A DNA stretch of 64,000 nt from Escherichia coli (GCF_003334765.1 NZ_QOWT01000022.1), one strand, 5' to 3'. Positions 1,326 through 48,731 are shown, counted from the first letter of the stretch. Numbers and translations are program-made. Notes: a model not told the origin generated them from the sequence alone.

Positions 1326-1927
1326 GGATTCACTCTCATTGTGTCAATAACATGGACCGCCCCGCCTTCATGCGCGGTGCCGCCGGAAATAATTGTTTCG
1401 TTGATATACGGATAGATCGTGATTTCTTCGCCAAGATAACTGGCGGCTCCCACCCAATGCGGGCCGCTGGTCTGCAGATTGATGGACATGCCGATCATGT
1501 GACGGCTACATGGTTTGGCATCGCTTATCAGTCGCTCAAGTTCCAGATAGGTATCTTCAGTGATGCCCTGATCCTGCACGCCGATATCCAGGCGAAACGT
1601 GCCTGGTGTTTCTCCGGTCTGCCACCACTCAATAATGCGGATCAGAAAGCCGAACGGCTCCACCACCCGCCGCACGGCACTGGTGGTTCCTTTATGCTGA
1701 TGAATATAAAAAGCATCCTTCACCACCTGGCGTTTGACACTTTCCGTCCAGTCCTCGTCCCAGCGATCCACAGAGAACGCCCAGGCGAGATAAGGCAGGA
1801 AACTGACCGGACAGGTCGTTGGATTCCACAAGTCACGCAGCGGCACCTGCAAATCAGAAATCCCGCTGCAGGTTTGCGCCAGTCGGCGCTCCAGTGAAGT
1901 TGAACCCGGTGGCAGCAGACTATTCAT
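1322..1927 (-). CDS. Baseplate assembly protein (P2 gpI-like)
   Basis: 201-aa ORF; position between J and H; ATGA-type overlaps with neighbours. Confidence 0.75.
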   Translation of the reverse strand: MNSLLPPGSTSLERRLAQTCSGISDLQVPLRDLWNPTTCPVSFLPYLAWAFSVDRWDEDWTESVKRQVVKDAFYIHQHKGTTSAVRRVVEPFGFLIRIIEWWQTGETPGTFRLDIGVQDQGITEDTYLELERLISDAKPCSRHMIGMSINLQTSGPHWVGAASYLGEEITIYPYINETIISGGTAHEGGAVHVIDTMRVNP

Positions 1928-2828
1928 CCGTTCCTCCGTTGGTTACGCTCCACTGCGTACATGATGCCGCCTGTGTTTTGTTCAGGACCACATCCGCCAG
2001 CGGCGAAGCCAGCTCCACACGCTGCACACCCTCAACATGCAGGGCGGCAAAGATGGCGCTACGGCGAATATCCCGGCCAAGACGCGTCTGACTGGCGATG
2101 TACTTCTGCAGACTGGCTTTTGCCGCTGCCATTACCGGCTCTGCTTCCGGTCCCGGATAGAGAAAAATGGTGGCTTCCACGCGGTACGGGATGATTTCTG
2201 CGCTGCGAACCGTCAGACGGTCAGCCACCGGGCGGACGTTCTCACTGTTCAGGGCTTTCTCCACCACATCCAGCAAGTCTTTTTCTGCTGTTCCATCGCC
2301 TTCGCGGCTAAGGACAGTCAGCACCACCTCTGCAGGTGCCGGACTGGTTGCACTGGCATCCGCCACCCGACCGTCGGCGCTTCGGGCATGAAATTCATAA
2401 GCTGCAGTTGGCCCCGCAACTGAAAGCCCTTCAAAGGCTGCAGGCACACGCAGGCGTAACGCTTCATCGCTTTCCATCACAGCTGCAACGGGCGGCACAG
2501 CGTCATCATCAGCAGGCGTCACCGTCAGGCGTTTCACGTTGTAGTTGGCAGCGAGCTGGTCAAGATCGCCGCCCATCGCATAAGCCACCATCACCGCCTG
2601 CGCGGCTTCGTTAATGCGCTGGCGCAGAAGCAACTCACGGTAAGCGTTCTCCTGCAACAATTTGGTGACGGGTTCAGATTCCAGTTCCAGCGTGCGGATC
2701 ACTGCTTCCTGCTCATCTTTCGGATGAAGCGCCACAAATTCTGCCTTGCGTTCGGCAAGCAGCGTCTCAAAGTCCGGCACATCCACAATCTGCGGCGCAG
2801 GCAACTGCGAAAGGTCAATCACTGCCAT
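1920..2828 (-). CDS. Baseplate assembly protein (P2 gpJ-like)
   Basis: ORF 1920-2867; start chosen at internal Met (MAVIDLSQLP...) giving 302 aa, the P2 gpJ size as recalled; position in W-J-I order. Confidence 0.75.
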   Translation of the reverse strand: MAVIDLSQLPAPQIVDVPDFETLLAERKAEFVALHPKDEQEAVIRTLELESEPVTKLLQENAYRELLLRQRINEAAQAVMVAYAMGGDLDQLAANYNVKRLTVTPADDDAVPPVAAVMESDEALRLRVPAAFEGLSVAGPTAAYEFHARSADGRVADASATSPAPAEVVLTVLSREGDGTAEKDLLDVVEKALNSENVRPVADRLTVRSAEIIPYRVEATIFLYPGPEAEPVMAAAKASLQKYIASQTRLGRDIRRSAIFAALHVEGVQRVELASPLADVVLNKTQAASCTQWSVTNGGTDE

Positions 2829-3174
2829 TCTCTGCTCCTGTTGATACGGAAAGGGAAACAGGCACACCGTTATTACGCCGCCCGGTCAGCTCCACCACCA
2901 TTGAACCGTCAAAATCGCTGTTGATGGTGATGGAATCCAGCGTCAGCCGTGGCTCCCAGCGACTCAGCGCCACATACACTGCCGACATGACCTGCAGGCG
3001 TAATGCCGGATTTTGTGGCTGGTCTATCAGTGCCGACAGCAGAGAACCATATTCCCGACGGGCAATACGGCTACCCTGCGGTGTCAGCAGAATGTCCCGC
3101 ACCGACTGGCGCAGATGGTCAATATCAGTAATGGCTTTGCCGCTGGTATTGTTCATCCCGCTATAAAGCGTCAT
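2815..3174 (-). CDS. Baseplate assembly protein (P2 gpW-like, GPW/gp25 family)
   Basis: 119-aa ORF; start overlaps gpV stop as ATGA; position between V and J. Confidence 0.75.
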   Translation of the reverse strand: MTLYSGMNNTSGKAITDIDHLRQSVRDILLTPQGSRIARREYGSLLSALIDQPQNPALRLQVMSAVYVALSRWEPRLTLDSITINSDFDGSMVVELTGRRNNGVPVSLSVSTGAENGSD

Positions 3175-3749
3175 ACCGGACCTCCGGTTGTGTCGCCGCC
3201 TTTCAGGACGCCAGTATGCTGATGCGCATCAACCACAATCCCGTTAGAGCTCATCGCTCCACCGCCCTGGGTAACGCCACCATTGATCACCACTTCGCTG
3301 TTAATACGCGTGCGGTCAGCCTCCAGCATAAACTCACTGGTTTTCAGGGTGATATTGTCAGCGGCCTCAATGACCATTGATTTGATGCCCCTGACATACC
3401 AGCGCCCGGTGGCGGGTTCGTATTCAAACCAGCCGCCGTCAGGATGTTCTGTCACGCAGGCGTCCGCCGACGTCGAAGGTGGCGCGAACTGATTCGAATA
3501 GATGGCGGGTAACGCAAAGGCGGTTTCCAGATTGCCGCCCAGACTCAGCAGCACCACCTGCTCACCTTCCGATGGTCGCCACCATGTGCGGGCATTACCC
3601 GCGCGCAGCGTCAGCCAGTTAATCCAGTTGGTTTCAAGGTCGCCCGTTTTCACCCGACAAAGCCAGTTTTCCCGGTCCACTTCGGTGACTACACCTATGC
3701 GGATCAGATTGGTGATAAGGCGCATGATTTCGGTTAGTTGTGCGTTCAT
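3171..3749 (-). CDS. Baseplate spike/assembly protein (P2 gpV-like)
   Basis: ORF 3171-3992; phage-like sequence begins at internal Met (MNAQLTEIMRLITNL...) at 3749; the upstream in-frame part is AT-rich insert DNA and unlikely to be coding. Confidence 0.7.
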   Translation of the reverse strand: MNAQLTEIMRLITNLIRIGVVTEVDRENWLCRVKTGDLETNWINWLTLRAGNARTWWRPSEGEQVVLLSLGGNLETAFALPAIYSNQFAPPSTSADACVTEHPDGGWFEYEPATGRWYVRGIKSMVIEAADNITLKTSEFMLEADRTRINSEVVINGGVTQGGGAMSSNGIVVDAHQHTGVLKGGDTTGGPV

Positions 3750-3852
3750 AGATATATGATGACAGCTGAAAACTTGTTTATAACTTCTTGCAAATTGTGG
3801 TATCGATGGTACAAATTGATAAAAGGATAAAAAACAACCAATAGGTGGATAA

Positions 3853-4659
3853 ATGAGTGTTATGAATCCAATAAGTTCTAATATATTTAATGCTGAATTT
3901 TTAAACACCCCGGCAGCGGCACTTGCCGCATGGATTTCCATTATTGGAGCTGTTATAACTTTGGTGACGATAGTTATAAGAGCACTATTCAAATATAGAA
4001 AATCTCATGATGTAATTTTGAAAAAATCAGGAATACCTGCGTTTATATTGAATTTTTTTCTTATACGAATATCATTAAAAAGGCTGCCTACTATCACATG
4101 GGCTGAAAAATCAATCACGGTTCTCTTTTCACTTCTTTTTTTGTGTGCAATTTATATTTTTGGTCCAGTTTTCATCCAAGCCATTAGAACCCCACCAAAT
4201 AGCACATTGCTTTATTGGATAAAATCCGGTGAATCATTTTATATGTCAAAAAAACTGGCGACTGCAGCTACAATATTAACCACTCCTGATTGGGAAATAT
4301 CAAAGGATGATTGCGAAGAGTCATCCTCTGCCAGTACAGAGAAGTACAAATCATTAACTATCGAACATAAAGAAATTCTTTGTAAACTACTAACCACTGA
4401 TGAAGGGAATGCTTACATTGATGAAGAAGTCAAGAATTTCGTTAAAGACAAATTCTTTATCTATTCCTTTGCCCCAACAACCATATTTATTCTATTATGG
4501 ATTTCTTTGGGTTTTATACTGACCATTCACTATTCTAAAAAAGTTAGGAAATATATTCTGACTGAACAAAAAAATGCAATTCATTGGGCATATGGTGAAT
4601 TCAAGACAGAAGGAATCTATTCAATATATCAAGAGTTAGAACGTAAGACTCACCATTAA
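3853..4659 (+). CDS. Hypothetical polytopic membrane protein (moron inserted between tail genes S and V)
   Basis: 268-aa ORF, strongly AT-rich unlike flanking tail genes; several hydrophobic segments (e.g. AALAAWISIIGAVITLVTIVI, ITVLFSLLFLCAIYIFGPVF, TTIFILLWISLGFILTI); no recognisable domain. Confidence 0.6.
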   Translation: MSVMNPISSNIFNAEFLNTPAAALAAWISIIGAVITLVTIVIRALFKYRKSHDVILKKSGIPAFILNFFLIRISLKRLPTITWAEKSITVLFSLLFLCAIYIFGPVFIQAIRTPPNSTLLYWIKSGESFYMSKKLATAATILTTPDWEISKDDCEESSSASTEKYKSLTIEHKEILCKLLTTDEGNAYIDEEVKNFVKDKFFIYSFAPTTIFILLWISLGFILTIHYSKKVRKYILTEQKNAIHWAYGEFKTEGIYSIYQELERKTHH

Positions 4660-5047
4660 GACCCAACAAACGACGCTCTGCGTAACGCACTTCCGGTCCT
4701 TTGCGGCTGACGCGATCGCGCAGGCCATAATGGTGAACGCGGGCAATGCGCTGCACCTTACCTTCAAACTGCACGCTGGCAGAATCGGCGCTGGCGGCAG
4801 TTTTCAGGTATTTGGTGGTGCGCAGCTTTGCAAACATCTGACGTTTGATGCGGCCTTTTTTACTGCGCGCCGTGACCTTGCGCGGTTCATAACTGCTGCC
4901 ATCTGGATTGCGCTGCATCCTGATATTCTGCTGCTGTGTCCGGCGCAGTTCCTGCGCCAGCTGGCGCATCATGCGGCTTCTTGCGACTGGTTCCAGATTC
5001 GCCAGTAAGGCACTAAGCCAGTCGTCCACCTTCTGCAGTTCAGCCAC
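4601..5047 (-). CDS. Tail completion / virion morphogenesis protein (P2 gpS-like); last ~19 codons encoded by AT-rich insert DNA
   Basis: 148-aa ORF with basic gpS-like sequence; position next to R; 3' end 4601-4659 overlaps the convergent moron ORF. Confidence 0.7.
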   Translation of the reverse strand: MAELQKVDDWLSALLANLEPVARSRMMRQLAQELRRTQQQNIRMQRNPDGSSYEPRKVTARSKKGRIKRQMFAKLRTTKYLKTAASADSASVQFEGKVQRIARVHHYGLRDRVSRKGPEVRYAERRLLGLNGESYVLTLDILNRFLLS

Positions 5048-5498
5048 GTTTCACCGTCCACATTTCTTCAGGTTCATCGGGTTCTGCTACCGCTTCAACG
5101 CTCGACACACTGCCGTCAGTGCTGACCAGCACACGTTCCGTCAGTTGCAGGTTAAGGCTGATATCACAGACATCGTTGCGCAGAATATCCACCTCAAAGG
5201 TAAATAGTTTTTCCCGTAACGCCGGGTTATTGATGGCATCGGGCTGGTTATCCCGCAGCCACAGCAAAACCGGGGCCATCAGCAGATTCTGGTCGCCGCT
5301 GAAATCCTCAATCACCACGTTCAGGGTGTAACCACGCAGCCCTACGAGTTCACTAAAGGCAGTATCTTTCACCTGATGGAGCCGGACCTGAACCAGGAAA
5401 TTTACGGCCTGCCGGAATATCTGTCCGCCATTCCGTCCGCCTTGCTGAACGAGTCCGCTACGCTGTTCCGGCGTAAATACTACATCAATGGCAGTCAT
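5040..5498 (-). CDS. Tail completion protein (P2 gpR-like); N-terminus possibly not native
   Basis: 152-aa ORF; C-terminal ~100 aa look gpR-like (YTLNVVIEDFSGD...LTERVLVS); N-terminal ~40 codons are antisense to the portal fragment. Confidence 0.65.
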   Translation of the reverse strand: MTAIDVVFTPEQRSGLVQQGGRNGGQIFRQAVNFLVQVRLHQVKDTAFSELVGLRGYTLNVVIEDFSGDQNLLMAPVLLWLRDNQPDAINNPALREKLFTFEVDILRNDVCDISLNLQLTERVLVSTDGSVSSVEAVAEPDEPEEMWTVKRG

Positions 5499-5906
5499 GC
5501 AGGGTTCATCATGTATATGACCGACGCCGCGCAGAACCAGGAGGACGTGAACAACATCCGCCAGGCCATGAAAAGCGCTAAAGGACCGGGCAACTTCCGC
5601 AACCTGTTTATGTATTCACCCAACGGCAAAAAGGACGGGATTCAGATAATCCCGCTGTCAGAGGTAGCGGCAAAGGATGAGTTTCTGAACATTAAGAACG
5701 TGAGCCGAGACGACATGATGGCTGCACACCGCGTTCCGCCGCAGATGATGGGGATTATGCCGAGTAATGTTGGGGGATTTGGGGATGTGGAAAAGGCGAG
5801 TAAGGTGTTTGTCCGTAACGAATTGATACCGCTGCAAAAGCGAATTAAAGAAATTAATGAATGGTTGAGTGATGAAATAATTTCTTTCCAACCATATGAA
5901 TTATAA
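5376..5906 (+). pseudogene. Portal protein fragment (P2 gpQ-like, C-terminal portion only)
   Basis: 176-aa ORF ending ...NVSRDDMMAAHRVPPQMMGIMP...; portal-like C-terminus, about half the expected length; directly abuts gpR on the opposite strand with no capsid, terminase or lysis genes between. Confidence 0.6.
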
Positions 5907-5907
5907 T

Positions 5908-5934
5908 AAAGTAGGGCAAATAATGCCCTACTTT
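5908..5934. terminator. Bidirectional stem-loop between convergent portal fragment and 285-aa cargo gene
   Basis: Perfect inverted repeat AAAGTAGGGC-(AAATAAT)-GCCCTACTTT flanked by A/T runs. Confidence 0.6.
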
Positions 5935-6785
5935 AACCAAATATTATAATCCAATCTTCCTACGTATCTTGAAAAAACAGCCAGAGCAATTGCTTGCCCT
6001 ACACTTGTTAATTCAATTCCTTGATAGTTGCTCTTTGAAAATTTTTCTAAAAATGCAGACACATGAGGGGCAACTAACTTAAGATTTGAAATATATGCAC
6101 TCTTATCTTTTATATCAGTCGGATATTTACTCATAAAATAGTCTTCAACATCCATCCCTAAAAAAGTATTCCATGAACAAGCCCCTGCATATTGAATGTG
6201 ATATATCTGGGCTTGAGACAAATTAAACCCATTAGTATACATTGATTCAAAGTTTCTAAAATTGTGCTCCAACAAATCCAATCGAACACCATTAACAGGG
6301 TCTTTGATCTCAACATTCTTGAGAAGAAAAACTATCGTTATAAGTGATATTTGTTGCTGTGTTAACTTGGGAACGACGGTAACTGCCTCCGTTAAAACTA
6401 TATCTCTAAAATCGTCATTGTTATTGGAGACTCGTTCAACTAACAACTGAGAAAGCACATCCATATTAGCTTTCTTTCCCTTCCTGGCTGATGACTTTAA
6501 TGCCTCAGTCAATGTAGCCTGAACGTCCGGATCGCAAAATTTATCAATAATCAATCTATCAACGTTTTTTGTTAAATCCGAAACGACACGCTCTTCAAAA
6601 TCTTTTGCATTCTCTTGAGCTGCAGCATAAGCAACATCTTTCAATTTTGGAAACTGATTTTCGAAGAGAATGTTGAATAGTTCTCTAACCTCGGAAAACG
6701 ACATCCCTGAAACATTTACATTATTTCCAGCTTGAATTGCATACGAATTATTACCTATTTGTTGCTTTTGCTTATCACTAAACAT
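5928..6785 (-). CDS. Hypothetical protein, 285 aa (AT-rich cargo, cos-proximal)
   Basis: Long ORF in AT-rich DNA; no domain recognised; N-terminal low-complexity motif IGNNSYAIQAGNNVNV. Confidence 0.65.
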   Translation of the reverse strand: MFSDKQKQQIGNNSYAIQAGNNVNVSGMSFSEVRELFNILFENQFPKLKDVAYAAAQENAKDFEERVVSDLTKNVDRLIIDKFCDPDVQATLTEALKSSARKGKKANMDVLSQLLVERVSNNNDDFRDIVLTEAVTVVPKLTQQQISLITIVFLLKNVEIKDPVNGVRLDLLEHNFRNFESMYTNGFNLSQAQIYHIQYAGACSWNTFLGMDVEDYFMSKYPTDIKDKSAYISNLKLVAPHVSAFLEKFSKSNYQGIELTSVGQAIALAVFSRYVGRLDYNIWLK

Positions 6786-6794
6786 ATATCCTCC

Positions 6795-7040
6795 TTATTT
6801 TTTATCACCTGTATTTATACAATCAATTTTAATATCACCTCTAGCCTGGACAGCAGTTGAATTATCACCAACTGATTGGCTCATAGAATTATATTTATTT
6901 TTTGTAGTGATAAGTAATCCAGCTAAAGCGCTAACTGCAGCCAAAAATGCAACAATAGAATCAAAACCAGGATCCATATAAAGCCATAATCCTGCAATCG
7001 ATGCCAGCATACATGTAATGACTATTGCAAAAATTTTCAT
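6795..7040 (-). CDS. Small membrane protein, 81 aa, two predicted TM helices; co-oriented 9 bp upstream of the 285-aa gene
   Basis: Hydrophobic segments IFAIVITCMLASIAGLWLY and IVAFLAAVSALAGLLIT; C-terminal tail VGDNSTAVQARGDIKI resembles the N-terminus of the downstream protein. Confidence 0.55.
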   Translation of the reverse strand: MKIFAIVITCMLASIAGLWLYMDPGFDSIVAFLAAVSALAGLLITTKNKYNSMSQSVGDNSTAVQARGDIKIDCINTGDKK

Positions 7041-7108
7041 AAATTCTCCTTCTAATGGAAGTGGTTATACCGAAAACAATTTCCTTTTACAACCACGCAC
7101 AGCGCGCG

Positions 7109-7127
7109 CTCGTATCCCCGCCACGCC
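7109..7127 (-). other. cos-like site (P2/186-type cohesive-end sequence)
   Basis: Minus strand reads GGCGTGGCGGGGATACGAG, close to the P2/186 cos overhang as I recall it (GGCG[A/T]GGCGGGGAAAGCA-); sits in a GC-rich island inside AT-rich DNA. Confidence 0.45.
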
Positions 7128-7345
7128 TGCCCGCTTTGTGTAGTGGTTTTCATGCACCTGCATGACATAAGTAAAAGCCCGCCAGAACTGGCGGGACTGA
7201 GCAAAAACGATCCTTTTGCGATCATTCATTTTCATGCGCTATAGTCATGCAACAAACGCATACGAACCATATGGTTAGATTACTCATCAAGTCAGATGGA
7301 TTTTCAGGCAGATTGCCACAGCAATTGTAAAGGAGCGAGATTGAA

Positions 7346-8347
7346 ATGGGTGGAGAGACTTCGGCTATACAACGAGTCGCGGGTAAGATTTCTGATGATA
7401 TTTTCTCAGTGTTCAAATGGGATCGTGCCGCTAGAGCGGACATGAATTGGGATTGTTGCCAAGAGGCTCATTCCAAGAAAACACATCCAAGCGATGTTGT
7501 ATTTTTCTACATAGATCCATATGAGGAGGAAATGGTCTATCTCAACACAGACCTCAAAAGCTATGCAGAAGGTACTATTGGGAAAAAAATAGTCGAGGGA
7601 GCTTTAACATCGCTTGCTTTAGCTACCGAGTGTGCAAATGTCAGTGAAGAATGGCGATTGAAATATGTTCATGATGATTCTTTAGGTTATAACGTAAGAG
7701 GGTTATTATTCTTATATAACCATGATAATTTATATGATAAAGACTTCTATGAGAATATTACAAAAAAATTAGATCACTCATCTATAAATTGCCCTCCAAA
7801 CATCAAACTACATTTGCTTGACCCTTATAAAATATCAGATTTGATAAACATATCTTCTGACATAACTAAGTTAATTGGTTCAGGCAAACTTCCTCAACCT
7901 GATAAGTTCACATATTATTATCCAGATCTTTCCCTAACAAGAATAAAGCACCCTATTAATCAGACAACACCTGCAACAATTGAATTATTAACATCACCAT
8001 ACATTATAATAAAGCATGAGGCTTTCAGTTGGCTCAGGGATAAAAACCCTGAGGGATATGTTGTTTATTACAATCAACCGGGGGATTCAGTAGACGAATT
8101 CGTTTACTTCTTTGATATGTTATCAACTTATCAGATATTAACCGAAGGTAAACCAATCGTATTACGCCATTGTCACATTCACCCAAATGAAAATGCCATT
8201 CATCATTTTGAAAGAGCGAAAAAGAAATACAGCACAGACTGGCTCTTAGGCGAGGATGAAAGACTTTTTCTTAAAATTGACTTCGACAAGACAGACAAAA
8301 TTGTTGTTGAATATAATCTTGAACAAATCGGCATGGAGCAACGATAA
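7346..8347 (+). CDS. Hypothetical protein A, 333 aa (first gene of three-gene cargo operon)
   Basis: ORF with AGGAG-like RBS ~10 nt upstream; AT-rich; stop overlaps next start (TAATG); no Walker A, RT or TIR motif seen. Confidence 0.7.
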   Translation: MGGETSAIQRVAGKISDDIFSVFKWDRAARADMNWDCCQEAHSKKTHPSDVVFFYIDPYEEEMVYLNTDLKSYAEGTIGKKIVEGALTSLALATECANVSEEWRLKYVHDDSLGYNVRGLLFLYNHDNLYDKDFYENITKKLDHSSINCPPNIKLHLLDPYKISDLINISSDITKLIGSGKLPQPDKFTYYYPDLSLTRIKHPINQTTPATIELLTSPYIIIKHEAFSWLRDKNPEGYVVYYNQPGDSVDEFVYFFDMLSTYQILTEGKPIVLRHCHIHPNENAIHHFERAKKKYSTDWLLGEDERLFLKIDFDKTDKIVVEYNLEQIGMEQR

Positions 8348-9426
8348 TGGCTAAAAAACTATATTTCGCAACTGATAAAAATATTTATGATGCATTACAT
8401 CATAAAAGGATAACCGCTGCAAAGTTGCATGAATTATTGTTGAATCGAGGTGTGTTTTTATCACCAGAACTCGACAAGGAAATACTAATCGAGGAAATAT
8501 CCAAACTTCCTCACGGATTTAATGAATTAGAACACATAAAAAAACTGGTCAAAACATATGACCCAAGGGAAAGCACTACTAGTGTGAGCTTCCAAACCTC
8601 AACAAATCAGGCCGAATTAAAAAGTGCTGCTGAAGCACTAAAAAAAACATGCTCCCCTAGTAAAGGTCAAAGCCTGAATATTGTAGCTAAAAAAGATGGC
8701 TCGCTTACAGTAGAATACAAATATGAAGAAATAGACCTGTCTAAAACTGCATTACGTCAGATCGACAAGCGGAATGTTATAATAGAACTTCGCCCTGGAG
8801 CTGACAAAGTTGAAGTACGTATGCCTCAAAACCCCGAGGCAAAAAAAGTTATTGAGAGCTTGCAAAACGAGCTATCTAAAATCAAGTCCGAACCTATCGA
8901 GCGCTTCGAAATATCATTACTAGCAATAACTGATCCTACATTGCGAAGTCAGTTTTTTCAGGAATTAATGAATGGTCTACGCGGTTATGAGACTGATGAC
9001 GTAACAAAAGTCGAATTAAATCGCAGTACTGATGCTAGTGAGGATGAAGACAAGGAAGAAACTATTGATACCGGATTTGTTAAGAAAGCCGTCCTTAATG
9101 GTGAAGGGGTAAATAGTTCAGCTATATTTTCTCAACTACATGAGAAAGGTTATTATATCGGGCGTATTGCATGGTCTTCAAAGCCGACAAGTGGAATTGG
9201 AGACAGAATCAACGTCGAAGCATTTTTCAAAGACTCAGAAAAATGCTGTGACTTTGCCTATCAAATTAAAGGTATAAACAATCAAAAAGAAGACGGTTTC
9301 AATGTAACCATTCGCGCGGCAACGGCACAAGAGAAAAAACATATTAGTGAATTAATTGAGTCCGCCGCTGAAAATGCCTATAATATAATAATAGGATCAG
9401 AGGTGAACGAAGATGAAAAAGGTTAA
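8347..9426 (+). CDS. Hypothetical protein B, 359 aa (second gene of three-gene cargo operon)
   Basis: ORF coupled to gene A by a 1-nt overlap and to gene C by a 14-nt overlap; acidic stretch DASEDEDKEE; no recognisable domain. Confidence 0.7.
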   Translation: MAKKLYFATDKNIYDALHHKRITAAKLHELLLNRGVFLSPELDKEILIEEISKLPHGFNELEHIKKLVKTYDPRESTTSVSFQTSTNQAELKSAAEALKKTCSPSKGQSLNIVAKKDGSLTVEYKYEEIDLSKTALRQIDKRNVIIELRPGADKVEVRMPQNPEAKKVIESLQNELSKIKSEPIERFEISLLAITDPTLRSQFFQELMNGLRGYETDDVTKVELNRSTDASEDEDKEETIDTGFVKKAVLNGEGVNSSAIFSQLHEKGYYIGRIAWSSKPTSGIGDRINVEAFFKDSEKCCDFAYQIKGINNQKEDGFNVTIRAATAQEKKHISELIESAAENAYNIIIGSEVNEDEKG

Positions 9427-10096
9427 ATGGCTTAAGTTAAACATACGGCTTGAGTTTGAAACAGCCGTTAGACGTCTTTCTCTTGATTCTTTTACAGAGG
9501 ATAAAGGGAAAGGGTTCATTTTTGATAAAATACGCCATGATTTTGCAAATGGTCGCTTTGTCGAGCGTATTGTTTATCATGATAAAATATTAAGCTTTGA
9601 CGGAAGCGAAACTACCGTTGAAAGAATCGAATATCGCACCACAAATTTTAGCGTGGCTTTAGACTCTCTTCCTGTAATGCAGATTACTAACCCACCCAGA
9701 ACTTTAAAGCCTTTTTCGCAGGCTTTGGTAAAAAATCTTGGCTTAGGTGTTAGTTTGGAAGAAATTGACATAAACCCTATAGACTGGCTTAATGAAATAT
9801 CTTCAAGTGTAAATATCAATTTAACACAACTTGATATTTCAAGGGTTAGAGTTTCTGATTACGCCACAGCTAAAATGCAAATAATTGGCAGCAATGATCT
9901 TAGGAAGTATTATAAAGAAGAATTAGAGGGTAAAAAAATAAGAATTGACAGGCTTGTTTGCTCTGTTAATTCATTAGAATATTCCGGTAAGCTCAAGATC
10001 ACCAATAGCGGCCTTGCTTATATTGATGTTAGAAATGAGAATGAGTTTACGAAAATCGTTTTTGATACGTTAAAAAAAGTCACCCTTCAATCATAG
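9413..10096 (+). CDS. Hypothetical protein C, 227 aa (third gene of three-gene cargo operon)
   Basis: ORF starting inside the end of gene B; followed by a strong hairpin; no recognisable domain. Confidence 0.65.
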   Translation: MKKVKWLKLNIRLEFETAVRRLSLDSFTEDKGKGFIFDKIRHDFANGRFVERIVYHDKILSFDGSETTVERIEYRTTNFSVALDSLPVMQITNPPRTLKPFSQALVKNLGLGVSLEEIDINPIDWLNEISSSVNINLTQLDISRVRVSDYATAKMQIIGSNDLRKYYKEELEGKKIRIDRLVCSVNSLEYSGKLKITNSGLAYIDVRNENEFTKIVFDTLKKVTLQS

Positions 10097-10152
10097 ATGG
10101 CTTATAAGGAGTTACTTCACCTAACGCCTCGCCTTACTCGTTGTTCAACCTC

Positions 10153-10183
10153 GTAGGCGTCAGAATCAAGTTCTGACGCCTAC
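10153..10183. terminator. Bidirectional stem-loop between cargo operon and DinI-like gene
   Basis: 13-bp perfect inverted repeat GTAGGCGTCAGAA-(TCAAG)-TTCTGACGCCTAC. Confidence 0.6.
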
Positions 10184-10191
10184 AATGTTTC

Positions 10192-10425
10192 TTAATGCAG
10201 CCAGCTATCGTCCTCCCAGACCTGCTGCATTATTTCCATCACTCGCTTTTTGTCTTCATCCAGTTTTAACCCGCTCAGCTCAACGCCATTGGCGCTGCCC
10301 TTACGGATACGAATTGCTGTTTTGGGATACAGAGGGCGCAAATTACGGTAAAGCTCGGATTCAAGGGCGTCCAGGGTAGACTGGCTAATCTTCTGCTCTT
10401 TATCGATCATTATTTCAATGCGCAT
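10192..10425 (-). CDS. DinI-like protein
   Basis: ORF 10192-10497; internal Met begins MRIEIMIDKEQ..., 77 aa, alignable by eye to E. coli DinI (MRIEVTIAK...WESADDW); downstream of a LexA box. Confidence 0.7.
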   Translation of the reverse strand: MRIEIMIDKEQKISQSTLDALESELYRNLRPLYPKTAIRIRKGSANGVELSGLKLDEDKKRVMEIMQQVWEDDSWLH

Positions 10426-10435
10426 AAAAGCCACC

Positions 10436-10624
10436 TCAGCTGATGACATCCATTGAGCGGTTGTATTCGTGGGTTCTGATTTTTGCCATGAGTTCATCTG
10501 TCAGTTCAGAAACCCACTGCAGAGCCAGCCCCTTCTCTTCATCACTACACTCACTAGCCGCTACAAGCTTAAGAAAAAAATCAATGCGCTGGAGCTTCAA
10601 AGACTCCAAAAAATAGTCCTGCAT
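10436..10624 (-). CDS. Small protein, 62 aa, first gene after the LexA box (possible Tum-like antirepressor)
   Basis: ORF ~40 bp downstream of the LexA box; position corresponds to the SOS-controlled tum module of 186-like phages; functional call is by position only. Confidence 0.35.
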   Translation of the reverse strand: MQDYFLESLKLQRIDFFLKLVAASECSDEEKGLALQWVSELTDELMAKIRTHEYNRSMDVIS

Positions 10625-10664
10625 CTTTCCTCCTATGACACCAAAGCAACACTGTATACATAAC

Positions 10665-10683
10665 CACTGTTTGTATTTACAGT
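10665..10683. promoter_or_regulatory. LexA operator (SOS box) upstream of the tum-like/DinI-like module
   Basis: ACTGTTTGTATTTACAGTA fits CTG-N10-CAG; AT-rich promoter-like context. Confidence 0.7.
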
Positions 10684-10775
10684 ATATAATAATATTACTG
10701 ATGTAAAACGTTTTTTACGTTCATCAGCCTGATATGCCTGGTATTATTAAGAGCACGAATTGTTAACCTGCGTAA

Positions 10776-13190
10776 TTAATACAGGTTCCGCCACTTATCA
10801 TCTTCCTGCAAACGCTGGTTCCGATAGAAGATACGCAGGCCTGCTCCTGACGGAATACTGCCACCACGTAGGAGTAAATCGACCTCTTTCTCGCTGCCAT
10901 CAAATCCTCTGGACTTCAGCTCATAGACGAGCTGCTGTCGCTGATGATCTGTAATTCGCTGTTTGTAGTCTTTACGCCGTTTCAGCTTAACTAGGCGTAA
11001 CCTCGCTGCCAGTTCCCGGCGCTCTTTTTTGCTCATACTGTGCAGGTAATCGTGCAATTCCTTGTCATCCATGCGGGTAATGTCCGTTCTGGTGTCCCCA
11101 TCAGCTGATTTATCTTTATCCTGTTGGTTCAAATTTTCAGCAAGGGGACAGTTATTGCCACGAGTCCAAGGGGCGCAAGCGCCCTGGTCGGCTGCCGCCT
11201 CCTGAACGTCAACGGCTTTACGAACCATTTTCCACTTCACTGCATGAGTGCAGATCTTGCCCTCTGCAATGGGTGACCAGATGCCATAAATACGAATGCC
11301 GTGATCGCCATAGGCGGTCGGCTCTTCGTTGATTTCATAAGCGGTTCTGATGAGGTGATATTTACGGGGAACCAGTACGCCGCCCTGCTTCATGATGTAG
11401 GTGGCAAAACAACCAGCATCAGCAGCAGCCAGAATGGCATCAAGACGCGGGTTATCCAGTACCGGCGCACCTGCTTTTTTGTCACCCTGTTGCCTTGCCG
11501 CCTGACCAGCCAGCAAGCGAAGTTCACGGTAAGCCTGACGCCCCGGAATACCAAAGAAGCGGAATTGCTGAACACGATGCAGAGACGCCCAGGCATTAAC
11601 GTATTCAGCGTTATCACGCAGGGATTTACCCGTTTCCTTGCTGATCTCGCCAGCCAGACCACGCCCGTCAATGTTCTTACTGATGTATTTCGCGATGTAG
11701 CTTGTTGGCGTACCTTTGCGCGGGTTTATCAGCTCAGACTTAAAGCGTGGCCCCGTGTTATTGCCCAGCTCCTCGCGGTCTTCACGGATGGCAAACTTAC
11801 GCAACAATGCAGTAATGGCGCGGCGGTCTTTTTTGCGCATGAAACACAACAGGTGCCAGTGAACTGTGCCGTCATGATGCGGTTCAGCCACCCGCACGCC
11901 ATACCAGCGCAACCCGGCTTTGTGCATAGCCTTACGAAATGCAGCAAACATGCCGACCAGATAATCGCTGCTTTGTCTTACCGTCGCGTTTGTCCAGGTC
12001 GGGTTTGGTCTGCCGTTATTGAGCGTGGAATGGAAACGCGACGGACAGGTGATAGTGTAGAAAACGGCACAGTCACTGCGCATTTCTGCGATAAGCTCCA
12101 GACCTTTAACACAGGCCATCATCTCATTGCGGCGATGCGCCGGGTTGCTGCTGCTGGCGTTTACCACATCCTCCATGTCCAGCGTGTCGCCGTCTTCGTT
12201 CACCAGTTCATGAGAACGGAAAAACTCCAGCGACTTACGGCGCTGCTCACGTTTATGCATCACGGCTTCATAGCTGACATAGGGAGATGCTTTTTTGCTG
12301 ACCAGGCAAACAGCACGCAACTGCTCTTCCCGCCATTCGCAACGCATCTTCCATAATTTCCGGTACCACCAATCGGCGCACAACATACGCGCCAGCGAAC
12401 CCGGAATGAGTTCATAGGGCACGGGTTTACGGCGGTTTCTTTTCCGACGAAGTTGCTCAAACGCAGGCGGGATAACATCCAGTCGCAGGGTTTCTGCTGC
12501 CACCTTTTCCCATGTCTTGCGGATTTCTTCTGGCTTAACATCATCGGTGGCGTACAAATCACCACAAGCGGCATCAAGACACATGCTCATATGCGCAGCG
12601 ACAAGAGTAGACAGGCGTTTCACCTGATCCTGACTCATTTCAGGCAGAATCAGCAGGCCGTCCAGCCCTACATGGCTTGCCATAAAACGAAAAGATGCAG
12701 ATAGCTGGCTGTCGCGTACATGCTCCAGTCGCTCCAAACATGGCTTAATCGTCTCACGCAAATAGCGGGAATAAGCCTTTGGCCTGCCCAGGCTGCTGAA
12801 GTATTCAATACGTTGCATCAGCGGCTTGCTGATATGGGAAGGCTGGGCATTGACGTCCGCCAGAATGACCATATCTGGATTAAAACGCTGCTGCTCATGC
12901 GCCAGCTTTGCCCGACTAATGAGCTTATCCTGCTCCATTTCGCGCTGGACAGGATCACGGGATTCATTAAAGAAATAACGCTCCCAGACCTGATCACTCA
13001 GTGCCTCGCGGCGCAGGTGTTCCTGTTCGTTATCGGCAGCGTACAGAGCGATCAGGTTTGAAAGCGCAGAAACCGGCGCAACTTCCGCCGGGTCCAGATA
13101 AGGGTTAATGGCCTTTTTCGGGCTGTTCCATGAGAACGCTGCGGCAGCCTCGTTAAAGCCGCAGCAGTTGTTCATATCGGCATGGCTCAT
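10776..13190 (-). CDS. Replication initiation protein A (P2/186 gpA-like rolling-circle replicase)
   Basis: 804-aa ORF, the size and position of P2-family gene A; start overlaps Dam stop. Confidence 0.75.
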
Positions 13191-14044
13191 GCACGTACTC
13201 CGTACACGGCAGAACTATCCACGCCACGCGAATAATCAAATCCCACCCAGCAGCGCGGCCCGGAAACAGCAATGATTTCTGTTGCTGATTTACCCTCGCC
13301 AGCTGCCACACCGATGCTGCGTTTTACCTTGATATAGTGGTGAGTAAAATTGCGATACAGCGAACGGATCAGGGATGTATCACTGTTAGAAACAATGACC
13401 GGATGTCCTTCTGATGACCGATGTTCAAGAACGGATGCCAGGTGATACTGGTCATCTTCAGTGAAACCATCAGTGTGATAGCCGGAAAACGTACCGTCAT
13501 ACGGCGGATCGCAATACACCACATCCCCCGCCTTCAACATCGCCAGCGTTTCATCAAAGCTGGCGCAGATAAACGTTGCTCGCTGGGCTTTTTCTGCAAA
13601 TGCGCGAATTTCTTTTTCAGGGAAATACGGATTTTTATAATTACCGTAGGGAATGTTGAAATGCCCGCTCTTGTTATAGCGACATAAACCACGGTAACCG
13701 TGACGATTGAGATACAGGAAATATACCGCTTTCATGAAATCAGTAATTTCAGTTGAGTAATTAAACTCCTGCCTTATGTTGTAATAAGCCCCCCCCCTGT
13801 TTGCGATCTCAAATAAAACTCTGGCGCGAGATATAAACGATTCACAATCAGCAGCAACCTTTTTATAGAGGTTGATTAAATCAGGATTAATATCCGCAAC
13901 AAGATAGCTGGGGTACTCCGTCTCCATCATCACTGCACAGGAACCCGCGAAAGGTTCAACCAGTCGCGGGCCAGCAGGAAGATGCTTTTTCAGTTCGGAC
14001 ATAATGGCGGTTTTATTTCCCGCCCATTTCAGGATGGTGCTCAT
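13187..14044 (-). CDS. DNA adenine methyltransferase (Dam-like, D12 class)
   Basis: ORF 13187-14104; start chosen at internal Met ([11 protein letters not shown]...); motifs EPFAGSCAV and DPPY typical of Dam-type N6-adenine methyltransferases. Confidence 0.85.
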
Positions 14045-14268
14045 ACAGCACCTCCGTTGTAATGTTTGCCTTTCAGCTCTGCGATTTCCTGACAGGTAAT
14101 GCAAAGCTGCACACCCGGAATGGCACGGCGGCGTGCTGGCGGAATTGGCGCTTCACACTCAATGCAAAGCACGCGGGACACGCCCGGCGTTTTGGCACGG
14201 GCAGCACGGATATGACGCTGGCGTTCTTCTTCAACGCGCTGCTGTACGAGATCCATTGCATCAGCCAT
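14041..14268 (-). CDS. TraR/DksA-family C4 zinc-finger protein
   Basis: 75 aa with CIEC...CITC cysteine pairs. Confidence 0.7.
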   Translation of the reverse strand: MADAMDLVQQRVEEERQRHIRAARAKTPGVSRVLCIECEAPIPPARRRAIPGVQLCITCQEIAELKGKHYNGGAV

Positions 14269-14507
14269 TAGTGGATCTCCTGCGCTTCGTTCTGGATTGC
14301 TTCAGCTGCCACACGCAGCAGTTCAGCCGCTTCAACGTGGTTTAGCTGGCGGGATGTGATATGGCACGCAAGGCTATCAAGGCGAGCTGCCATTGCTTCA
14401 GCTCTTGCCCGACGTTCTTCCAGACGAGCCTCTGTCAGTAAAATATTAAGTCCTGCGTCATCCGGTCCGGTTTTAGTCGAGAGGGTTTCAATATTACGCA
14501 TAATCAA
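14268..14507 (-). CDS. Hypothetical phage early-region protein, 79 aa
   Basis: ORF packed in the early operon between the TraR-like gene and upstream genes. Confidence 0.5.
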   Translation of the reverse strand: MIMRNIETLSTKTGPDDAGLNILLTEARLEERRARAEAMAARLDSLACHITSRQLNHVEAAELLRVAAEAIQNEAQEIH

Positions 14508-14568
14508 TTCTCCTGAATTTAGATAAAGGAATGCCCGGCGGGTTTACGCCATGAATTTCATTAATTGG

Positions 14569-14910
14569 TTAATTCGGCATGGCTAGCCGTCTGGGAAATA
14601 AGCTCACCACTGCACGAAGATGATTCATTACTTTAATCAACTCCCGCTTTTCGTCAGTGGTCAGCTCATTAATGCTGATGCTATGACGTTCAGCTGGAAT
14701 TTTTGCTATAAAGAATATAGCAGCCAGTGCTCGTTTATTTCGTTCATAATTAATATCCCGTGGATCACGCATATCTTTAATAAACCGCTCAAGCTCTGAC
14801 TCAATATTCAGGCCAAAAACTTTCGCCCTTAACTCTGCAATGTGATTAAGTCCATTCAGGCGTTCACCGGGGCTTAATGGAACAGTTGCTGCAGCGCCAT
14901 TAATTGCCAT
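14569..14910 (-). CDS. Hypothetical phage early-region protein, 113 aa
   Basis: ORF in early operon; no recognisable domain. Confidence 0.5.
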   Translation of the reverse strand: MAINGAAATVPLSPGERLNGLNHIAELRAKVFGLNIESELERFIKDMRDPRDINYERNKRALAAIFFIAKIPAERHSISINELTTDEKRELIKVMNHLRAVVSLFPRRLAMPN

Positions 14911-48633: not shown

Positions 48634-48731
48634 GCCTGATGCGGCGTTAACGCCTTATCCGGCCTACAAAGTCCTGCAGATTCAATATATTGCAGGTACT
48701 GCGTAGGCCTGATAAGCGTAGCGCATCAGGC
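48634..48731. repeat. REP/BIME elements between ybiU and ybiT
   Basis: GCCTGATGCGGCGTTAACGCCTTATCCGGCCTAC and inverted GTAGGCCTGATAAGCGTAGCGCATCAGGC are typical E. coli REP palindromes. Confidence 0.8.

Follow-up and report, generated by a model that had tools for sequence, protein, structure and literature searches.

The region studied here is a P2-like prophage in the chromosome of Escherichia coli, contained in a stretch of 64,000 nucleotides (GCF_003334765.1, NZ_QOWT01000022.1) that we call the window and from whose first letter all positions are counted. From 5325 to 11000, the window is 100% identical to the prophage of E. coli strain H3 and to four other records. In the RefSeq annotation of H3, the genes follow each other in the order portal, LPO_1073 family, small hypothetical, three hypotheticals, DinI family, small ORF, replication endonuclease and Dam methylase, after which the prophage continues to the CI repressor and the integrase beside rcdA and ybjJ. 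The minus strand of the window corresponds to the P2 '+' strand, and in that orientation the order reads A, DinI (Tum), a three-gene operon on the other strand, cos, a two-gene cassette and the portal gene Q. The DinI/Tum-like gene, the small ORF and A are all transcribed towards cos, on which Q, lying on the opposite strand, converges. This layout is that of P2 and 186 and is also observed in 104 P2-like loci among the matches listed, so that the site has both the position and the orientation of a P2-family cos. The main features are the following (offsets are counted from the first base of the 19-mer).

5325-5906, plus: portal gene Q, truncated, residues 151-343 (comparison with H3)
5928-6785, minus: LPO_1073/Vpar_1526 family protein (NCBIfam NF045477, 243 bits for a cut-off of 45)
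6795-7040, minus: predicted membrane protein of 81 aa (portal-side cassette)
7102-7251, minus: whole conserved cos block, 150 bp, offsets +25 to -124 (BLAST and alignment)
7102-7108, minus: CGCGCGC, sole conserved bases on the portal side (also in P2, 186 and P4)
7109-7127, minus: cosN, 19-nt cohesive-end sequence GGCGTGGCGGGGATACGAG (identity to 186 and P2, and to the SEN8 cos)
7128-7136, minus: AAGCGGGCA, in the proximal replication-side flank (7128-7163)
7145-7156, minus: TGCATGAAAACC, in the same flank
7159-7163, minus: ATGCA, in the same flank
7171-7195, minus: dyad and T-run (terminator scan)
7178-7195, minus: GC-rich dyad CCCGCCAG-TT-CTGGCGGG, followed by CTTTTAC at 7171-7177 (terminator scan)
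7223-7228, minus: TGAATG, distal GCAT repeat, variant (alignment columns)
7233-7237, minus: GCATG, distal repeat (alignment columns)
7246-7251, minus: TGCATG, distal repeat (alignment columns)
7346-10096, plus: 3HP anti-phage operon (full-length PADLOC Hp1, Hp2 and Hp3)
7346-8347, 8347-9426 and 9413-10096, plus: the three 3HP genes (Hp1, 1e-239; Hp2, 3e-248; Hp3, 2e-157)
10192-10425, minus: DinI/Tum-like gene (PHROG 189, NCBIfam DinI, H3 RefSeq)
10436-10624, minus: small ORF (H3 RefSeq)
10776-13190, minus: replication endonuclease A (H3 RefSeq)

The prophage region is also present, at 100% identity, in two records from human E. coli strains (NZ_CP148585.1 and NZ_CP148400.1), each about 55 kb long, which may represent the element in an extrachromosomal or unplaced state. 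Elsewhere in the prophage, a DUF6216 gene of about 33% GC (3853-4659, plus strand) separates the tail/baseplate genes V and S, which are read from the other strand. It has no match in PADLOC, NCBIfam or PHROG, and looks like a second cargo slot, within the late operon.

Likeness to the Cos Sites of P2-Family Phages

An earlier note, made from the sequence, had singled out a GC-rich island at 7081-7200 and proposed it as the prophage cos site, on the strength of a likeness between a minus-strand 19-mer and the cohesive ends of P2 and 186. The 19-mer lies exactly where it was placed (7127-7109) and the likeness is close, with 15/19 identities to 186 and 14/19 to P2, all differences but one falling in the last six bases. 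In sites of the cos family, GGCGNGGCGGGGA precedes six variable bases, and the window 19-mer is built likewise. A search of the window for the 186 19-mer, exact and with three mismatches, returned nothing because the window allele differs from it at 4/19 positions; a degenerate family pattern (GGCGWGGCGGGGAN7GCGCGC) was needed, and it occurs once in the 64 kb, both strands included, for 0.01 occurrences expected.

The circular cos junctions of P2, 186 and P4 were rebuilt by joining the right and left ends of their records, and these P2-family regions were aligned to the window, as the earlier note had advised. All three align without gaps, at a unique place, with high significance and in the correct orientation with respect to Q and A. 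The pattern common to the window and the three junctions is ...ATGCAnnTGCATkAAAAyC...AAGCGGGCr, then the 19-mer, then yGCGCGC. When the 66-nt cos cores (-40 to +26) were slid over both strands of the window, this site scored 48/66 with P2, 51/66 with 186 and 48/66 with P4, while the next-best score anywhere in the window was 33-34 and the background 16.5 +/- 3.6 (z ~9). The conserved core around cosN is thus present in the window at a single best site; it corresponds to the '55-bp cos region' of Ziermann and Calendar (1990), in the excerpt quoted in PMC3931495.

The closest counterpart is found in the Salmonella phage SEN8, a relative of Fels-2 with an annotated cos sequence (PMC5427200), which is exactly GGCGTGGCGGGGATACGAG. 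Moreover, the match to the linear SEN8 record ends at the last base of that record, which corresponds to window position 7128 (offset -1), just before the 19-mer; the genome end chosen by the depositors therefore coincides with the nick position predicted by homology. With its unique gapless match, its orientation and its identity to the SEN8 cos, the reading of the site as the prophage cos is supported, and we put the probability that 7102-7251 is a P2-family (Peduoviridae) cos of a Fels-2/SEN8-like lineage at about 0.9.

Anatomy and Conservation of the Block

The GC enrichment of the island is real (56.7% at 7081-7200, for 34.3% in the flank at 5928-7080 and 36.5% in that at 7253-10096), but its limits have to be moved. 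In BLAST searches, homology starts and stops at 7102/7251 in 91 phage records, and a block with identical boundaries is found in 1,251 of 5,426 complete E. coli genomes (positions 7-157 of a query made of window 7095-7260). Boundaries recurring in this way across genomes identify 7102-7251 as the real feature, slightly offset from 7081-7200.

Conservation within the block was studied on an alignment of 119 sequences (116 distinct) from P2-like and P4-like elements, gathered by an allele-neutral scan of IMG/VR (pattern GGCGNGGCGGGGAN7GCGCGC) that recovered at least 120 loci. Motif columns reach 1.6-2.0 bits, spacer columns about 0-0.3 bits, and conservation extends as far as +25 towards the portal gene and about -124 towards the replication genes. 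As cosN and GCGCGC were fixed in the search pattern, their conservation in this alignment carries no evidential weight. The upstream motifs played no part in the pattern, and their contrast with the spacers points to a constraint acting at fixed spacing, beyond what shared ancestry alone would leave.

On the portal side, identity to relatives collapses from +26 onward. Among the matches listed, GCGCGC is kept in 70 of the 80 P4-like loci anchored on psu, nine others having TGCGCGT, TGCGCAC or TGTGTAA. On the replication side, the proximal motifs AAGCGGGCA, TGCATGAAAACC and ATGCA are common to P2, 186 and P4, and are followed further out by three distal repeats, of family consensus TGCATG-N7-TGCATG-N5-GCATG (1.6-1.9 bits per column), found in both P2-like and P4-like elements. 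The window departs from the highly conserved positions only once, by a C-to-A change in TGAATG (7223-7228), in a column where at least 90% of the sequences agree; the same GAATG variant is found in other loci (e.g., L074).

By homology with P2, this block would be recognised by the terminase (gpM, small subunit; gpP, large subunit). With one nick in each strand, placed 19 nt from each other at the two ends of GGCGTGGCGGGGATACGAG, the enzyme would generate 5' cohesive ends before threading the DNA into the procapsid. Recognition would be strongly asymmetric, extending over some 124 bp towards the replication genes but over only 7 bp (CGCGCGC) towards the portal gene. Candidate binding sites for the small subunit are AAGCGGGCA, the TGCAT/ATGCA pair beside AAAACC and the three distal GCAT repeats, a role that we infer for the latter from their conservation. 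Since little flank appears to be required (7 bp on the portal side and a sharp edge at about -124), cassettes could abut cos, or be exchanged, on both of its sides.

Two further observations concern the block. It contains two GATC (Dam) sites 11 bp apart, at 7209-7212 and 7220-7223 (offsets -85 and -96). Both are conserved in position in 122 of the 132 window-allele loci, whereas 15 of 19 P2-allele cos blocks contain no GATC; no clear association was observed between the GATC pair and a phage-encoded Dam methylase gene (5/12 dam-positive and 10/45 dam-negative loci). In addition, a 'hypothetical protein' CDS is annotated across the cos block in MK416011.1 (L002 4003-4152) and in PP599993.1 (L128 1153-1296).

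The Hairpin at 7178-7195

A perfect palindrome, CCCGCCAG-AA-CTGGCGGG, had been reported at about 7171-7188, some 45 bp from the 19-mer. The perfect 8+8 repeat does exist, but 7 bp further right, at 7178-7195, and it starts 50 bp from the 19-mer. With 22 perfect 8-bp inverted repeats in the window, of which 7 are GC-rich, such structures are not rare there, and the significance of the hairpin can come only from its conservation in relatives. A terminator scan flags 7171-7195 on the minus strand, where a 7-bp stem and a 4-nt loop are followed by CTTTTACTTA, with a short T-run of four Ts; the predicted fold has an energy of -14.5 kcal/mol (z = -3.0). In Rfam, at gathering and permissive thresholds alike, no family was found at or near the cos site, so that the hairpin is not a known RNA. 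The sole match of the window at the gathering threshold is the ES036 (CssrF) sRNA at 48668-48710 (plus strand), which is chromosomal and unrelated to cos.

Within the lineage the structure is typical: 99 of the 132 window-allele loci preserve at least 7 of its 8 pairs, and stem and T-run occur together in 15/22 loci with the window allele versus 0/17 P2-like loci with the P2 allele, among the matches listed. Family-wide, a dyad CGCCAG-NN-CTGGCG stands at a constant distance from the nick; its pairing amounts to 67%, compared with 30-43% in slid controls, a value reached by none of 500 shuffles, and at least five of the six inner pairs are kept in 57/119 sequences. The hairpin can thus be called a feature of the cos block, inside which it lies, and a typical one for the lineage, but not a general one, since P2 itself has no dyad. 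The cos of P2 being functional in this state, the hairpin is not essential to a cos site.

We read the hairpin as most probably a terminator or an insulator, a preference that we hold with only a little more confidence than doubt. It is favoured because, in relatives devoid of replication-side cargo, the DinI gene stops at -206 and its transcription runs directly into the block; in MLG42 (see below), 80 bp separate the end of this gene from the block, into which it is likewise transcribed. The hairpin would then stop transcription coming from DinI/Tum and the A side before cosN, sparing the portal operon from antisense run-in. In the window, the 3HP operon adjoining the hairpin points away from it.

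A less probable, though still serious, reading is that the palindrome is not a terminator and acts at the DNA level, as an accessory cos site bound by a dimeric terminase or by a host protein. Its fixed distance from the nick (-68 to -51) and its pairing above both slid controls and shuffles would agree with such a role. The core CCAG-NN-CTGG reaches 1.1-1.4 bits over the whole family, including P4-like elements without a T-run, and the dyad is kept whichever gene lies upstream (at least 7 of 8 pairs in 21/21 loci with DinI directly upstream and in 62/71 of the others, i.e., no difference). It is this persistence, with or without an adjacent DinI gene or a T-run, that makes a DNA-level role possible. 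Against it, P2 and most P2-allele loci are devoid of the palindrome and yet the P2 cos works, all six inner pairs are found in only 26/119 sequences, and the frequent G-T 'pairs' are easier to reconcile with an RNA hairpin formed from the minus strand than with a symmetric site for a protein.

The centre of the dyad (7186-7187) is polymorphic, reading GAAC in 77 loci and GTTC in 29. The two forms are mutual reverse complements, as expected from hairpin flip or template switch at a perfect palindrome.

Cargo on Both Sides of Cos

The earlier note had placed a three-gene operon on the replication/tum side of cos and a two-gene cassette on its portal side, and both assignments are confirmed: the former (7346-10096) is found towards A and DinI (Tum), the latter (5928-7040) towards the portal gene. 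The three co-oriented genes of the operon match Hp1, Hp2 and Hp3 over their full length, which identifies them as 3HP. Rousset et al. (2022) validated a three-gene system with no clear predicted domain, which originates from the gpA-gpQ hotspot and protects against P1; the same work locates the hotspot 'adjacent to the cos site', and a 2026 preprint has revisited it. Hp2 also shows a weak match to GapS4b in NCBIfam, well below threshold (23.5 bits for a cut-off of 300). We take the PADLOC Hp1/Hp2/Hp3 models to represent that same three-gene system (3HP).

The two genes of the portal-side cassette belong to PHROG families of unknown function and have no match in PADLOC; they may be a pair, so far uncharacterised, acting in defence or exclusion. 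Among the allele-specific matches listed, only two loci have this cassette at 80% identity or above, on the same side of cos in both. Its possible promoter is TTGTAA (7087-7092) with TATAAC (7064-7069), while an outward promoter for the 3HP operon is predicted inside the cos block (7216-7245). Both cassettes start close to cos and each is transcribed away from it. Distant homologues of 3HP occupy the portal side in L039 (+124 to +2829 from cos) and the replication side in L091 and L042, reading away from cos in every case; either slot can therefore house this type of system. At the far end of the operon, a strong hairpin with a 14-bp stem (10153-10183) separates the end of Hp3 from the end of the DinI gene, and is probably the shared terminator of these two converging units.

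That cargo has accumulated on both sides of cos, as the earlier note had stated, is correct and is the normal state in this lineage. Portal-side cargo, defined as a gap of over 400 bp from cos to the portal stop, is distributed as follows among the matches listed.

P2-like loci, allele-neutral sample: 46/89
P2 allele: 1/14
Window allele, allele-neutral sample: 14/16
Window allele, allele-specific sample: 92/100

In the allele-specific sample, 71/92 loci also carry cargo between DinI and cos.

Loss of the Packaging Genes

Compared with H3 (locus L001; segments 1398-5332 and 5325-14910 of the window), the prophage is devoid of L001 3936-9000, a deletion of 5,065 bp that fuses the region of the tail gene R to codon 151 of the portal gene at 5325-5332. 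It removes the remnants of lysC and gpM, the capsid gene N, the scaffold gene O, the terminase gene P and the 5' end of Q; the H3 prophage itself already has an internal lysC-gpM deletion. The junction shows a short, imperfect microhomology (GTGTAAC vs GTCTAAC) and was found in none of the 5,426 complete E. coli genomes; it may be strain-specific or an assembly artefact. In tblastn searches over the 64 kb, no terminase, capsid or scaffold gene was detected, and the portal is represented by residues 151-343 only. The prophage thus has no terminase of its own (gpM, gpP), which is needed for function in cis and not for the identity of the cos site. Having lost terminase, capsid, scaffold and portal residues 1-150, it is unable to package itself.

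What remains is a cos site that appears intact but orphaned, and that could be cut only by a helper with a compatible terminase, either a co-resident or a superinfecting relative. Full activity may not be preserved, given the C-to-A change in the distal repeat. One might go further and regard the site as a cos by descent that is now a dead fossil, kept because the deletion is recent or because the block serves the cassettes as promoter, terminator or spacer. The missing packaging and head genes and the degenerate repeat would fit this view, as would the predicted outward 3HP promoter and the terminator-like hairpin within the block. We nevertheless regard it as unlikely: the block is 100% identical to that of H3 and other genomes, it agrees with the lineage consensus in all the other highly conserved columns, the GAATG variant also exists in other loci such as L074, and its sequence bears no sign of decay.

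Cos Alleles and P4-like Satellites

Among the matches listed, the main forms of the last seven bases of the 19-mer are the following.

ATAGCAT: 40/120
ATACGAG (window allele, second commonest): 23/120
AAAGCAC (P2 allele): 19/120
AAAGCAT (186 allele): 16/120

In the allele-neutral scan, the window allele is found in 22 of 104 P2-like loci (about a fifth), and all 137 loci recovered with an allele-specific search are P2-like, in both cases among the matches listed. It was seen in none of 95 P4-like loci among the matches listed (0/15 in the neutral sample and 0/80 in the psu-anchored one, an anchor that recovers only close relatives of P4), and the P4-like alleles listed all end in GCAC or GCAT. 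The flanks of the window allele co-vary with it, CGCGCGC taking the place of TGCGCGC, and GGTGCATGAAAACCAC that of CTGCATTAAAACCGAC.

One conceivable explanation is that the ATACGAG allele and its co-varying flanks mark a P2-like lineage with a packaging specificity beyond the reach of P4-like satellites, the divergence of cos being an escape from satellite piracy. We consider this improbable as it stands. That the lineage may not be served by the known P4-like satellites should be taken as a lead, not as a result.

The site itself is not the cos of a P4-like satellite, or of some other hitchhiking element inserted in the prophage, a candidate that we rejected and to which we give practically no weight: P4-like satellites do share the cos core and an adjoining cargo hotspot, but the flanking genes are here the P2-type A, DinI and portal, the allele is the one just described as confined to P2-like loci (137/137, and 0/95 P4-like, among the matches listed), no homologue of psu, sid, delta or alpha lies beside it, and the flanks of a P4 satellite (psu/sid/delta on one side, an int-side hotspot on the other) are found neither in the window nor in the 137 loci listed. 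Finally, the notion that the GC-rich island is a mere terminator or divergent promoter between cassettes, resembling P2 and 186 by coincidence, can invoke the terminator-like hairpin and the promoter-like site but is refuted by the alignment statistics (a 150-bp cos match, unique in 64 kb, z ~9; 0.01 occurrences expected; 48-51 for a next best of 33-34), as well as by the canonical position and orientation and the identity to an annotated cos.

Comparison with Known Cos Systems

The nearest relatives of the block are found in SEN8, Fels-2, RE-2010, Klebsiella Gegevirus prophages and the Yersinia phage vB_YpM_MLG42 (isolated as a phage on Y. pestis EV76), with 83-94% identity (about 85% for Fels-2 and RE-2010, 89% for MLG42). 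The 19-mer of SEN8 and MLG42 is identical to that of the window, so that MLG42 has the same allele, and it also has the same terminator-like dyad. In this group, DinI/Tum and A are neighbours of cos of the same type as in the window. The difference is that these relatives are complete or virion-forming phages, whereas the window copy is devoid of packaging and head genes, has the C-to-A repeat and carries other cargo.

Phage 186 (NC_001317) resembles the window in its cosN (15/19), its core (51/66), a CGCCAG-NN-CTGGCG dyad at equal distance and a Tum/DinI SOS module upstream. It differs in the last six cohesive-end bases (AAGCAT instead of TACGAG), in its dyad without a T-run (its annotated terminator, t95b, is about 100 bp further from cos) and in having no portal-side cargo, the portal stop being about 190 bp from cos. 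P2 (NC_001895) shares the Q/A architecture and orientation, the distal TGCAT repeats and, at a lower level, cosN (14/19) and the core (48/66). Its cargo (old, tin) adjoins cos, is transcribed outward and starts about 150 bp from the nick; unlike the window, however, P2 has no dyad, no DinI/Tum gene and cargo on the replication side only. In P4 (NC_001609), which has a similar core (48/66) and TGCAT repeats, the variable cargo begins a few bases past GCGCGC, on the same side as the two-gene cassette of the window (hotspot of Rousset et al. 2022), but P4 is another type of element, and the window allele is absent from the 95 P4-like loci listed.

More distantly, the cos of lambda (cosQ-cosN-cosB) combines a nicking site with a one-sided, asymmetric array of sites for the small terminase subunit. 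The block is comparable in principle, with a nicking site and an asymmetric one-sided array, but there is no sequence relationship, the overhangs are of 12 nt in lambda and 19 nt here, and the names of the lambda subsites are not established for P2.

Implications

The element, the cos allele and the hotspot are all of kinds already known, while the loss of packaging and head genes by the window prophage is a new point of the present analysis. Its main use is in annotation, as a cos at 7102-7251 orients the prophage map. It also splits the known gpA-gpQ hotspot into two cargo slots, with boundaries defined to the base pair at +26 and about -125, and presents the two cassettes as independent units reading outward. 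The two records with a 'hypothetical protein' CDS across cos can be flagged, these calls being probably spurious. The prophage being a defective remnant, its defence cargo is now effectively chromosomal, and cos would matter only if a related helper were to cut it. The current understanding of the biology of the P2 family is left unchanged by this finding.
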